DNA of 64,000 nucleotides from Candidatus Versatilivorator sp. (GTDB taxonomy: Bacteria; Acidobacteriota; Terriglobia; Versatilivoradales; Versatilivoraceae). Below the pieces are notes generated by a model that saw nothing but the letters and a program-made list of their open reading frames with translations, made no database searches and was not told the DNA's origin. Shown here one piece after another: positions 5,631 through 7,973 of the stretch. The position numbers and the translations under genes were made by a program. The stretch lies in NCBI GenBank assembly GCA_965207735.1, contig OZ242296.1, forward strand, positions 4,576,001 to 4,640,000, given 5' to 3'. How positions within the stretch are numbered: position 1 is the first letter of the stretch; every line of letters begins with the position of its first letter.

Positions 5631-6183
5631 GATCGGGAAGCCCAGGATCGGCTCGGTCGCATTCCCTGGGACTACGCCAAGGGCTGGCTCCGCCTCACTG
5701 ATGCCCTCAGCCTCGCCAGATTCGGCACGGTATTGAGGCAAGTTAACCCGACTCCTGCCACCCCTTCAACACTCACTAGAACCATCTTCAGGATAGCGCC
5801 TAATTCCGCTTCATAAGCTCCCAAACGCCCCCAAGTGCCAGAAGCTCGACGGTGGGCGACGGTGACGTTTTTCTGCACCAGCCTGGGCAAGTCCTATCCC
5901 CCAACTGCTCCCGGCCGGACCCAGGGCCATGGGCCGCGACGGCCGCTGGTGGATGTTGAAAGATCCTCAAGCGGCAAGTCAGGTATGTTACCAACAAGGG
6001 AGGGATTGACCGACGACTCCGATGGAGGGACACGGAAGGCCGTCGCACCGAACTACCCCGACAAGAGGAGGCCATAGTTGACTCAGTGTAAAAATTTATT
6101 GCCATCGGATAAAATTTTGTGATAGCTTCTTTTCGGGCAGCCGAAACAGGCTGTGTTTTTGCAAGAAGGTACTTGTTGTTCAA

Positions 6184-6445
6184 TGCGACTAGGAACGATT
6201 TACACGCTCGATTCTTTCGGGCGGCCCTTTGGGGCCTTTCGGCAGCCAGGACTCTCTCCCTTCTCCTGTGTCGGCCGCTGTCTACCGCGGGCGGCCAGTA
6301 GTGGGGCGAGGTGTTCTGGACAGGTCCGTGACTCGCACTTTGGGTACGAGATCCGACGGATCTTTAAGAGAGATAGTCTGTGGGGTGCAGCCATGCCGAC
6401 TCTCCTAGTTGCGGCGCTGACGGACGACGCTATTGGAGCGTCGGA
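6184..6445 (+). ncRNA. Putative retron ncRNA (msr-msd)
   Basis: Outer inverted repeat GCGACTAGGA (6185-6194) / TCCTAGTTGC (6403-6412); inner stems TCGGCA/TGCCGA and GACTCTCTC/GAGAGATAGTC; hairpins at 6223-6236, 6273-6296, 6349-6363 and 6425-6443; directly upstream of the retron genes. Confidence 0.65.
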
Positions 6446-6459
6446 AAGGAAGTGCAAGT

Positions 6460-6705
6460 ATGAACAACGCAGACCTTCTTGGCTGTATCCAGTCTCTTCG
6501 AGAGATCAGGACTCAGTTAAACCATGTGCTGGACCCCAGCATCGGTATGGAGTTCGACTCTGTTATAAGTCAACTTCAAGATTGTTTGGATCGTGGGTCA
6601 GACCATCGCCAATTGGCGAACATCGATAGAGTCATTCCGTTTCTAGGACGACTGATCGACTTCACAACAAACGTCTCCGACCTTATCGACCGATACAAGA
6701 GCTGA
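6460..6705 (+). CDS. Small helical protein, candidate retron effector
   Basis: ATG at 6460 with AAGGA RBS at 6446-6450; 81 aa amphipathic helical sequence; first gene of the retron operon. Confidence 0.7.
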   Translation: MNNADLLGCIQSLREIRTQLNHVLDPSIGMEFDSVISQLQDCLDRGSDHRQLANIDRVIPFLGRLIDFTTNVSDLIDRYKS

Positions 6706-6733
6706 TGCAACAGACTATTTTCTTTTTTCAAAA

Positions 6734-7048
6734 TTGACCGTGCGTCTTGGCAATACCATCAAAGTCTGTCGAGCCTCTCGCGGCCTAACCCAAGCGAGGT
6801 TGGCCAAGCGAGCAGGGATATCCTTGTCCTACCTGTCTCTACTGGAGAATGACAAGCGTGATGCAAACGTCTCTACTTTGAAGTCCATTGCACAAGGTTT
6901 AGAAATCCCACTCAATCTTTTGTTTTTTTTGGCGTCTGACAGCCACGAACTGCAAGGTCTCCCGGAAGGGGTTCGAGATCAACTTTCATCCGTAGTCTTG
7001 AGGTTGTTGAATGAGCCGAGGATTGCTAAAACCTCACTACCCGTATGA
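6734..7048 (+). CDS. XRE/Cro-C1 helix-turn-helix protein (retron-associated)
   Basis: RASRGLTQARLAKRAGISLSYLSLLENDKRDANVSTLKSIAQGLEIP is a classic HTH_3; overlaps the RT start. Confidence 0.9.
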   Translation: MTVRLGNTIKVCRASRGLTQARLAKRAGISLSYLSLLENDKRDANVSTLKSIAQGLEIPLNLLFFLASDSHELQGLPEGVRDQLSSVVLRLLNEPRIAKTSLPV

Positions 7049-7973
7049 TCCCTTCAGCAGCCCTTTGACGTTGGGCAGACTCCTTAGGGAGGAATTTGCG
7101 ATTCTACGATCGATTGCGGAATCGCCGCAGGACTACTATCGTTACATCCCGATAAAGGATAAGAGCAAGGTAAGAGAGACGTGGGATGCGCTCGCGCCGC
7201 TCAAGTCCATCCAAGCTCGCATCCAATGTCTGATACTACGCAAAGTGAAGTACCCCGACTACCTGCAAGGGGGCATTAGAGACGAAGAGCAAGCCAGAGA
7301 CTCCGTTAGCAATGCTTCATTGCACTGTGGTCGGCGGATCGTGATTTCCGAGGACATCGAGAATTTTTTCCCTTCGACAAGATCAGATCTCATCCATGAC
7401 CTGTGGCGTTCTCTTTTCCATTTTCCTGATCATATTGCACGCGTCCTGACGGGACTAACGACCCTAGACGGCTATTTACCGCAAGGCGCAAAAACGAGTA
7501 GTTACTTAGCGAATCTAGCATTGTCCCGTACAGAACCTAGATTGGTGGAATGGCTAAGAAGGAATGGATTCACCTACTCTCGCTATATTGACGACATCAC
7601 GCTTTCAACTGACAGGGATCTCACGCGGCAAGAGGCCGCGGAGGTTTTTAGACATATCGCCCGAATGTGTTCACCATTGGGCTTTCGTTTAAAACGATCG
7701 AAACATGGCTTGACCACGAACGGCAATCGAATGTGTACGACTGGTTTGATTGTCAATCGGCAAGTTGGCTTGCCTAGAGAGTACCGCTCGCAAACACGTG
7801 CCTCGGTCCATCAATGCGAGCAATTAGCTAATCAGACAAAGTTGATGAGACAGAGGCCGTTCTTCTTGGTGGAATGGAGACGAATATCTGGGAAAGTGGC
7901 ATATTTGTGCCGCTTGCACCCACACGAAGGGAAGTTGCTACGCAAGCGTCTACTGGCAATTAAACCATGTTAG
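7011..7973 (+). CDS. Retron-type reverse transcriptase
   Basis: NASLH (retron region X NAxxH), DIENFFPS, LPQGAKTSSYLANL, catalytic YIDD, TTGLIVN (region Y VTG-like); 320 aa with no maturase domain. Confidence 0.92.
   Translation: MSRGLLKPHYPYDPFSSPLTLGRLLREEFAILRSIAESPQDYYRYIPIKDKSKVRETWDALAPLKSIQARIQCLILRKVKYPDYLQGGIRDEEQARDSVSNASLHCGRRIVISEDIENFFPSTRSDLIHDLWRSLFHFPDHIARVLTGLTTLDGYLPQGAKTSSYLANLALSRTEPRLVEWLRRNGFTYSRYIDDITLSTDRDLTRQEAAEVFRHIARMCSPLGFRLKRSKHGLTTNGNRMCTTGLIVNRQVGLPREYRSQTRASVHQCEQLANQTKLMRQRPFFLVEWRRISGKVAYLCRLHPHEGKLLRKRLLAIKPC

Follow-up and report, generated by a model that had tools for sequence, protein, structure and literature searches.

The closest described systems are two experimentally studied type VI retrons, Retron-Sen3 (SP cluster cl2075; bioRxiv 10.64898/2026.04.27.721009) and Retron-Vpa2 ('Large' lineage; bioRxiv 10.1101/2025.10.22.683967). 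Sen3 encodes a small protein (SP, 79 aa), a helix-turn-helix (HTH) protein and a reverse transcriptase (RT) in that order. Its RNA has a 5-bp 5′ stem-loop, which is needed for defence, an IR1 at the end of the msd that pairs with an IR2 past the SP stop, and two alternative folds. The C-terminus of the HTH protein was modelled on SP helices 1 and 3; HTH neutralises SP made from a foreign promoter, and DNA binding is therefore dispensable for neutralisation. SP without HTH is lethal, and the trigger is inhibition of the host RecBCD. In Vpa2, the msr-msd and the SP gene (55 aa) are carried on one RNA, the start codon lies within a helix, one copy of a direct repeat is in the msd and the other near the ribosome-binding site, and loss of HTH yields more msDNA and more SP. 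Toxicity was demonstrated for the SP_VI members of both retrons. The preprints differ on how HTH restrains the system (a block of reverse transcription versus toxin binding); in their accessible text neither considers promoter binding or mentions an operator. Two further groups bear comparison: type V (Retron-Sen1/Se72) and type IV (Retron-Eco6/Ec48) retrons, which share a clade 3 RT, and the controller (C) proteins of restriction-modification systems, which bind the C-box GACT-N3-AGTC as an autogenous site beside the −35 (PMC2175313).

We analysed a stretch of 64,000 nucleotides, referred to as the window; all features below lie on its forward (+) strand. What the sequence itself shows are the four parts of the locus, the families to which they belong, and the conservation of the dyad and of the RNA helices. 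The locus belongs with the long-SP (Retron-Sen3-like) type VI retrons, a kind that is already known and experimentally studied. It is intact-looking, with a structured RNA, an SP toxin-family gene, an HTH antitoxin and an RT, in the order SP-HTH-RT that is conserved among its relatives, the nearest of which are Terriglobia/Acidobacteriota MAGs. The initial annotation had proposed a complete type VI retron, and this assignment held: all three proteins were matched by PADLOC (RT_VI 1.3e-67, HTH_VI 9.9e-26, SP_VI 1.9e-6), in agreement with the RT tree, the gene order and the RNA architecture. Our favoured reading, at a probability of about 0.68, is that of a long-SP, Sen3-like type VI retron that likely acts by abortive infection, with HTH resembling a type II antitoxin whose C-terminal helices bind SP and whose N-terminal domain binds a dyad at 6078–6092. 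Searches for a Sen3-like locus found none in E. coli genomes (blastn) and none in phages (SP tblastn).

The RT (320 aa, 7011–7973) was assigned to clade 3 of the retron RTs from PADLOC, motifs and tree. It carries LPQG at aa 156 and the catalytic and retron motifs reported at the outset, namely NASLH (aa 101), YIDD (192) and TTG (243). RT_V, RT_VI and RT_IV were among its best PADLOC matches, the top score being RT_V with 233.7 bits versus 226 for RT_VI, and it is 31–32% identical to Se72-type plasmid RTs. A type V assignment was rejected on gene context and on the separate type V clade in the tree: no ORF with a cold-shock domain (the type V effector) is listed after 7973, and, unlike in types V and IV, neither a cold-shock nor a 2-TM gene lies past the RT. 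The RT phylogeny suggested in the initial annotation was built as a quick tree, in which the window RT fell inside a 32-row clade of HTH-preceded RTs (the window plus 31 others, SH-aLRT 97), separate from the RTs of type V, linked to CSD genes, and of type IV, linked to 2TM genes. Type VI, however, was not recovered as a single clade; long-SP and short-SP type VI RTs were not joined, unlike in the published tree, and the window RT was far from the short-SP group. Upstream small ORFs of the 32-row clade were also scanned; of 27 candidates, 25 matched SP_VI, among them that of the window.

SP (81 aa, 6460–6705) lies upstream of HTH and is predicted to be a three-helix toxin of the kind found in type VI retrons. 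It had been described as an ORF of unrecognised family and a possibly new toxic effector; instead it matches PADLOC SP_VI models PDLC02969 (1.9e-6) and PDLC02971 (1.7e-5), and thus belongs to the known family with the toxic Vpa2 and Sen3 members. The best model, PDLC02969, which we take to correspond to cluster cl2075, is a weak match (26 bits versus 98–128 for L011, L040 and L069). No match was obtained in Pfam or NCBIfam searches with SP. The structure model (pLDDT 74.6) showed three helices; fold searches gave nothing significant, with a best Foldseek E of 0.79 and a best VIA-align Z of 8.2, typical of helical bundles. SP is 68–79% identical in the related loci L001–L004. Mestre et al. reportedly noted a likeness of SP to epsilon antitoxins.

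A structured leader of about 260 nt had been described upstream of SP. The structure stood (z = −5.0, with 0 of 100 shuffles folding as well), but the leader is about 325 nt long (~6135–6459), and the predicted pairing reaches 6721, across the SP gene as in type VI RNAs. No Rfam family matched across the leader, the sole matches being to group II introns, at 13.5–15.5 kb. The predicted layout begins with a 5′ stem-loop at 6138–6153, which has a 5-bp stem; all five pairs are retained in 5/5 close loci, with an outer pair of C-G, T-G or T-A. By eye, distant loci have comparable 5′ hairpins. An arm at 6162–6182 is predicted to pair with SP codons 1–8 (6461–6481) and to cover the start codon; it is 81% complementary, shows compensatory changes in L001–L003, and reached p<0.005 in the window and p≤0.05 in 12 of 27 loci. 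The a1 arm (6185–6194) pairs in the alignment with a2 (6403–6412), with 10/10 pairs in 5/5 close loci and no two-sided change. Just behind a1, the candidate branch nucleotide G6197 is invariant in five close loci and predicted to be mostly unpaired.

Two short hairpins at 6206–6236, seen in both the MFE and the alignment fold, are likely the msr (RT-binding) region. The likely msd template of about 160 nt (6241–6402), placed from predicted folds and repeats, contains a variable long hairpin, repeat copy 1 (GACGGA, 6355–6360), IR1 (6370–6381) and an arm (6382–6391) able to pair with the SP coding sequence at 6528–6537; its DNA copy folded no better than shuffles (z −0.8). The segment 6403–6459 holds, by the predicted folds, a2, repeat copy 2 (GACGGA, 6419–6424, mostly unpaired) and the SP ribosome-binding site (~6443–6452). 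The direct repeat occurs in 18/27 loci, and both copies change together in L002–L004; the window's own repeat has just 6 nt (p 0.5), with copy 1 predicted to be paired. IR1–IR2 pairing was found at p≤0.05 in 23/27 loci, and the predicted ensemble of the window RNA is two-state (57:43). By described features, the window shares the 5-bp stem-loop, the IR1–IR2 arrangement and the two folds with Sen3, and the single RNA, the start-codon helix and the placement of the repeats with Vpa2.

The HTH gene (6740–7048, 102 aa from a GTG) encodes an XRE/Cro-C1 protein (HTH_3 2.6e-13) and overlaps the RT, as the initial annotation had it, ending 38 nt into the RT start; a Cro/C1 HTH gene of 91–110 aa overlapping the RT is what type VI leads one to expect. 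The same length was found in eight clustered HTH proteins of other assemblies. The GTG is without a Shine-Dalgarno sequence. A 10-codon spacer ORF (6705–6737), which contains IR2 (6710–6721), overlaps the SP stop (TGATG) and ends 2 nt 5′ of the GTG, and may couple HTH translation to that of SP. The equivalent of its ATG is in frame with HTH in L001 and L002; in the window it is shifted from that frame by one base. The HTH protein is predicted to bind DNA with its N-terminal domain and SP with helices at its C-terminus. The HTH–SP model gave an ipSAE of 0.62 (best of three controls, 0.00), with at least 84% agreement between runs and partner pLDDT of at least 76; the ipSAE mark behind this call was reached by 116/157 solved pairs and 2/215 mismatched pairs. 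The listed HTH interface residues are 1, 44 and 55–92, the recognition helix not being among them, and SP helices 1 and 3 are engaged as in the Sen3 model. The modelling thus supports binding of SP by HTH.

A sigma70-type promoter was predicted at 6099–6128 (−35 TTGCCA at 6099–6104, an 18-nt spacer, and TG plus −10 TAGCTT at 6120–6128), with a transcription start near 6135. A stock promoter scan called no site at the retron promoter; the prediction aligns with L001–L004 (−35 TTGACA/TTGACC; −10 TGn-TAGCTT/TATTTT/TCTAAT). An AT-rich palindrome at 6091–6118, near TTGACT, had been put forward as the HTH operator. The palindrome exists (8/9 pairs), but it is borderline against shuffles (p 0.056), has p 0.10 in L001 and is absent from L002–L004 (p 0.8–1.0), and was rejected as an operator for want of conservation. 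The idea of an operator was supported at another site: TTGACT (6078–6083) forms the left half-site of a 15-bp dyad, TTGACT-CAG-TGTAAA (6078–6092), that is conserved, while the best-placed −35 is TTGCCA. DNA similarity to L001 begins at 6078. The family consensus is TTNRCT-N3-AGYNAA, from which the window departs by one mismatch at 6087, a base that is A in 45/49 sites; across the genome, 205 sites come within one mismatch. The dyad was found in 25/27 discovery loci and, among held-out HTH-retron loci, in 14/22 of a first set (2.4 expected) and 9/13 of a second (9/9 exact; 1.26 expected), spread over several phyla. In retrons without HTH, the exact dyad was found in 0/24, 0/23 and 0/11 (58 in total), in line with its absence upstream of types V and IV. 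The HTH domain superposes on C.BclI and C.AhdI with an rmsd of 0.6 Å over 61 aa; C.BclI is the closest PDB structure to the HTH profile, and C.BclI, C.AhdI and C.Esp1396I are the closest structures. With the controllers the window shares the half-site core, the 3-bp spacer and a site beside the −35. It differs in its single, not tandem, dyad, in the extra C-terminal helices predicted to bind the toxin, and in having no restriction or methylase gene, so that the likeness is limited to fold and half-site. Taken together, HTH likely binds the dyad and controls transcription of its own operon.

The dyad bases track one residue of the recognition helix, the covariation coming from few independent lineages. 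C at base 3 was found in 15/16 half-sites with Met at HTH residue 34, in 1/60 with Leu and in 14/14 with Glu; in the Glu loci of the second held-out set, GA and CA each occur in 2 of 14 half-sites. Met with TTCACT occurs at five places on the tree, and because just two independent pairs lie on supported branches, the sign test is unable to reach 0.05. Twelve of 61 HTH loci have no dyad, most of them with a normal-looking recognition helix; no dyad is present in three loci where that helix has decayed.

That HTH works through protein and RNA contacts only, as published, with the dyad a promoter element or host-factor site (TTGACT as −35 and its mirror as a divergent −35), is in our view unlikely. 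The left half-site is identical to a −35 and, in 14/49 loci, functions as such, promoters are AT-rich, sites with at most one mismatch occur in 5/24, 6/23 and 3/11 retrons without HTH, and the data of both preprints, in their accessible parts, are explained without an operator. Against this, a separate −35 follows the dyad in 28/49 loci; TTCACT and TTCGCT are poor −35s, yet they are symmetric and track residue 34; the same dyad recurs in several phyla; local-shuffle p is 0.006–0.022 per site; and of three exact sites in the 5.26-Mb genome, two are inside ORFs and the single intergenic one is at a second retron.

Somewhat less probable still is that HTH activates from the dyad, like a controller protein at an upstream operator, with toxin production lagging behind the island's arrival in a new host. 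In the window the predicted start lies ~50 bp past the dyad centre, and the dyad precedes the −35 without covering it; the nearest structures are controllers, and C.PvuII activates from an upstream box (PMC2175313). HTH is most likely a repressor, because the dyad covers the −35 in 14/49 loci and lies 5–10 bp upstream in 28; one dyad was found rather than an activator–repressor pair, and HTH loss in Vpa2 raises msDNA and SP. Decay or silencing of this copy is very improbable. Pointing that way are the weak HTH start with its coupled ATG out of frame, one mismatch in the operator, and the flanks (an IS1380 remnant and IS1634) of an island rich in insertion elements. Against it, none of the three ORFs is interrupted and the catalytic motifs are present, the 102-aa length is shared, just 2 nt separate the spacer ORF from the GTG, replacements in HTH and RT are roughly as many as synonymous changes or fewer, and in Sen3 an intact SP is lethal when HTH is missing.

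Under the favoured reading of a Sen3-like retron with an autoregulatory antitoxin, a single transcript (~6135 to at least 6721) would alternate between two mutually exclusive folds. In the first, a1/a2 and the start-codon helix would form, leaving the RNA ready for priming and the SP start hidden; in the second, IR1 would pair with IR2. By analogy with Vpa2 and Sen3, RT would copy ~6241–6402 into ssDNA, RT, HTH and RNA would form a complex, and SP would be restrained by RNA structure and by HTH until a phage recombination function disturbs the complex, freeing SP and stopping the infected cell. HTH would also set operon transcription, most likely repressing it, and its loss or capture would therefore raise the toxin transcript besides freeing the toxin. 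RecBCD cannot be the sensor in the native host: unlike that of Sen3, the complete genome of this Acidobacteriota host has no RecC, with recB and recD below the cut-off, so the RecBCD-inhibition trigger of the cl2075 (Sen3) subclade does not apply, as concerns the native host only. An AddAB-like pair is present, and the sensor would likely be this helicase-nuclease or msDNA stabilisation itself.

A broader proposal is tentative, at somewhat less than even odds: type VI HTH proteins would be sequence-specific autoregulators with a code in which Leu, Met or Glu at residue 34 reads TT[G/T]ACT, TTCACT or TTCGCT, and the two retrons of this genome, the second (L029) being Vpa2-like, would use different operators. 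A single HTH protein would combine neutralising the toxin, binding RT and controlling transcription, so that its phage-triggered capture would derepress the operon, and the sensor in an AddAB host would differ from RecBCD. If true, autoregulation would re-explain the published HTH-mutant results (msDNA up, toxin up). The locus itself is one more member of the family treated in the two preprints. Of more use is the likely operator shared across that family, which is also relevant to constructs that take type VI retrons off their native promoter. The 15-bp site and the predicted residue–base code make a third, transcriptional role of HTH testable, and the window's copy offers a natural test of type VI sensing in a RecBCD-less host.

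The retron locus comprises three ORFs on the forward strand: an 81-aa small protein (SP, 6460–6705) and an XRE-type helix-turn-helix protein (HTH, ending at 7048), and a 320-aa reverse transcriptase (RT, 7011–7973) with the motifs NASLH, LPQG, YIDD and TTG. The predicted fold of the leader was far better than that of shuffled sequences (z −5.0). PADLOC matched the HTH to HTH_VI (9.9e-26) and the 81-aa ORF to SP_VI (1.9e-6 and 1.7e-5); the RT scored 233.7 bits with RT_V versus 226 bits with RT_VI. ORFs, motifs, leader and PADLOC matches bear out the initial annotation of a retron with ncRNA, small protein, HTH and RT. 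Its assignment of the 81-aa ORF to an unrecognised family does not stand, because the SP_VI matches identify a recognised type VI SP and no new family. The definition of type VI in Mestre et al. rests on a clade 3 RT, a Cro/C1 HTH "potentially targeting transcriptional regulation" and accessory proteins of 75–79 aa (PMC7736814), and a metagenome survey ranks the type fourth in abundance among retron groups (PMC13712802). We are nearly certain that the locus belongs to this already known kind.

The RT was placed in a quick tree of 73 RTs, from which RT ORFs below 230 aa, two loci lacking a complete RT ORF, 11 loci set aside earlier and 19 named rows (duplicates, fragments or fusions) were omitted. 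It grouped inside a 32-row clade (SH-aLRT 97) in which every member is preceded by an HTH gene; types V (cold-shock effector) and IV (2-TM effector) formed separate clades. Short-SP type VI rows were distant from the window RT, and type VI was not recovered as a single clade in this quick tree, contrary to the published tree. From SP length and RNA features we infer that the retron lies on the side of Retron-Sen3, a long-SP type VI system (cl2075/cl3272). The same gene order occurs in four Terriglobia/Acidobacteriota MAGs (RT identity 72–85%) and in several other phyla (30–49%); 3 of 31 host-family genomes, the window genome counted, contain a full-length match. Records bearing the labels Shewanella, Psychrobacter (plasmid) and Streptosporangium contain near-identical type VI retrons (L014–L017, L049), with a plasmid Rep-like gene adjoining the retron in L014, reflecting either plasmid spread or contamination.

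The G+C content of the three retron genes is 48–50%, versus 62% for the genome. The unit is flanked by an IS1380 transposase remnant (5289–5816; ∼100 nt of it also present in the close relative L002) and an IS1634 transposase (8274–9995), with a group II intron (13494–15463; intact 455-aa RT/maturase ORF at 13945–15312) and an integrase-family gene (21415–22692) farther off, and therefore probably came in on a mobile island. On the minus strand at 11456–12815, the island also encodes two adjoining proteins, one with ankyrin repeats and a hydrophobic segment at its N-terminus, the other 129 aa long, rich in cysteine, probably secreted and unmatched in Pfam. Elsewhere in the window are an ORF of ∼3,400 aa (31026–41309, plus strand) and a tRNA-Arg (61826–61902).

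An HTH operator had been proposed at a palindrome at 6091–6118. The palindrome is not conserved, but the operator idea finds support in a dyad at 6078–6092 (plus strand, TTGACT-CAG-TGTAAA), which is also where the DNA match to the closest relative begins. The pattern, TTNRCT-N3-AGYNAA, was spotted by reading leaders, ahead of the −35, and then fixed for new sets. Allowing at most one mismatch, it was found in 25/27 discovery loci, all from the window's clade, in 10/12 other HTH loci, and in 5/24 retrons without HTH, none exact. In held-out set 1 (52 loci, minus 7 lacking an RT ORF or with short upstream DNA), 14/22 HTH loci had the dyad (2.4 expected) versus 5/23 without HTH (2.65 expected; Fisher p 0.007). 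L110, among these five, is apparently a type VI locus put in the wrong class, and L115 is a near-duplicate of a discovery locus. Held-out set 2 (48 loci, minus 24 duplicates at ≥80%) gave 9/13 HTH loci, all exact, and 2/11 without HTH, none exact; of its four misses, three show decay of the recognition helix and one has a perfect variant dyad. Scanning the full 1300 nt upstream of the non-HTH controls yielded 6/23 and 3/11 loci, again none exact, and local shuffles gave p ∼0.01–0.02 per dyad site. The site is lacking in 12/61 HTH loci, mostly with a normal-looking recognition helix. Of 49 loci, 28 have a −35 that begins 20–25 nt past the dyad start, and 14 have one overlapping the left half-site. 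Five loci (L168, L176 and L183 from viral contigs, L075, L079) combine a decayed recognition helix with no promoter dyad, and may represent a branch in which transcriptional control was lost; the sole match in L075 is off-position with one mismatch, and L168 and L176 have several near-copies apiece in viral contigs.

The position of HTH residue 34 reads bases in 434-type repressors. Base 3 of the half-site, unconstrained in the pattern, tracks this residue: it is C in 15/16 half-sites with Met34 and 14/14 with Glu34, compared with 1/60 with Leu34; base 4 is G in 11/14 Glu34 half-sites. Set 2 mostly agreed (C at base 3: Met 2/2, Leu 0/4, Glu 12/14). The Met/TTCACT combination is found in five places on a 44-row RT tree, but with only two independent pairs on supported branches significance is out of reach. 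The window genome carries a second type VI-like retron (L029, G000:C1:3461027-3464770), whose RT has YADD and ∼30% identity to the window RT; it groups with short-SP loci resembling Retron-Vpa2. Its HTH gene is of the Glu type, its candidate SP (∼55 aa) follows a strong Shine-Dalgarno, and its dyad, TTCGCT-GTT-AGCGAA, is perfect.

The closest PDB match of the HTH is the restriction-modification controller C.BclI, and R11, Q18, S28, S30, S33 and E36 of the DNA-binding domain, as well as P57 and F63, are invariant or nearly so. Controller proteins bind GACT-N3-AGTC adjoining their own −35 (PMC2175313); the window dyad likewise places TTGACT-N3 before the −35. A host-wide regulon is argued against by the genome, with three exact sites, two within ORFs and one at the second retron (205 with at most one mismatch). 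Terms for operator, palindrome and autoregulation are absent from the main texts of two type VI preprints and a type IX preprint, and a search confined to titles and abstract openings turned up no report on a type VI operator, a negative of limited reach. We consider it likely that the HTH binds the dyad, whatever the sign of its effect.

The SP model has three helices and no significant structural match in the PDB. A 2:2 HTH–SP model scored 0.62 versus 0.00 for the best control, a mark met by 116/157 solved complexes and 2/215 mismatched pairs, counts that apply only roughly to HTH–SP. Runs showed contact agreement of at least 84% and partner pLDDT of at least 76, and confident contacts joined HTH residues 55–92 (and 1 and 44) to SP helices 1 and 3, with equivalent surfaces in the Retron-Sen3 model. 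The modelling thus supports HTH binding to SP. The HTH starts with GTG without Shine-Dalgarno, and 2 nt upstream of this start lies the end of a 10-codon ORF that overlaps the stop codon of SP. A length of 102 aa recurs in eight clustered proteins, so a one-off assembly slip here appears improbable. Crude synonymous/replacement counts for SP against four close relatives (4/17, 12/22, 8/20, 15/26) show fewer synonymous than replacement changes in every comparison, unlike HTH and RT, a pattern compatible with RNA-structure constraint or diversifying selection.

Retron-Sen3 is described as producing ssDNA and SP constitutively, SP being neutralised by HTH even from a foreign promoter, with an essential 5′ hairpin, inverted repeats IR1–IR2 flanking SP, and RecBCD inhibition as trigger (10.64898/2026.04.27.721009). 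For Retron-Vpa2, the account is of an SP toxin whose start is buried in hybrid RNA, an HTH–RT–RNA complex, and SP translation turned on by phage-induced msDNA, perhaps via a 7-nt direct repeat (10.1101/2025.10.22.683967). The five closest loci are conserved from near 6135 on, directly after the aligned −35/extended −10. All five keep the 5′ hairpin (5 bp), the a1/a2 stem (10 bp; 6185–6194/6403–6412) and IR1–IR2 (6370–6381/6710–6721; one mismatch in one locus), and the SP-start helix (6162–6182/6461–6481) has two-sided changes in three. In an alignment-free shuffle test of 27 loci, related loci counted and hence not independent, IR1–IR2 reached p≤0.05 in 23 loci, compared with 18 for the direct repeat and 12 for the start-codon helix. 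The window's own repeat is just 6 nt (p 0.5), but the two repeat copies change in concert in L002, L003 and L004. For the full transcript (6135–6745), the predicted ensemble puts 57% in the fold with a1/a2 and the start-codon helix and 43% in the IR1–IR2 fold. The window's branch thus combines RNA features of Retron-Sen3 and Retron-Vpa2.

RecC was not found in the complete host genome by a search that detected E. coli RecC, and recB and recD matches fell under the cut-off; RecBCD surveillance as in Retron-Sen3 therefore cannot hold literally. The host has an AddB-like/AddA-like pair, and sensing could proceed by guarding this enzyme, or phage recombination proteins might directly stabilise msDNA.

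Overall, we put at about two in three the probability of the full mechanism, with HTH as a toxin-binding antitoxin and likely autorepressor. The interest of the locus lies in the family-wide candidate operator rather than in the small protein.
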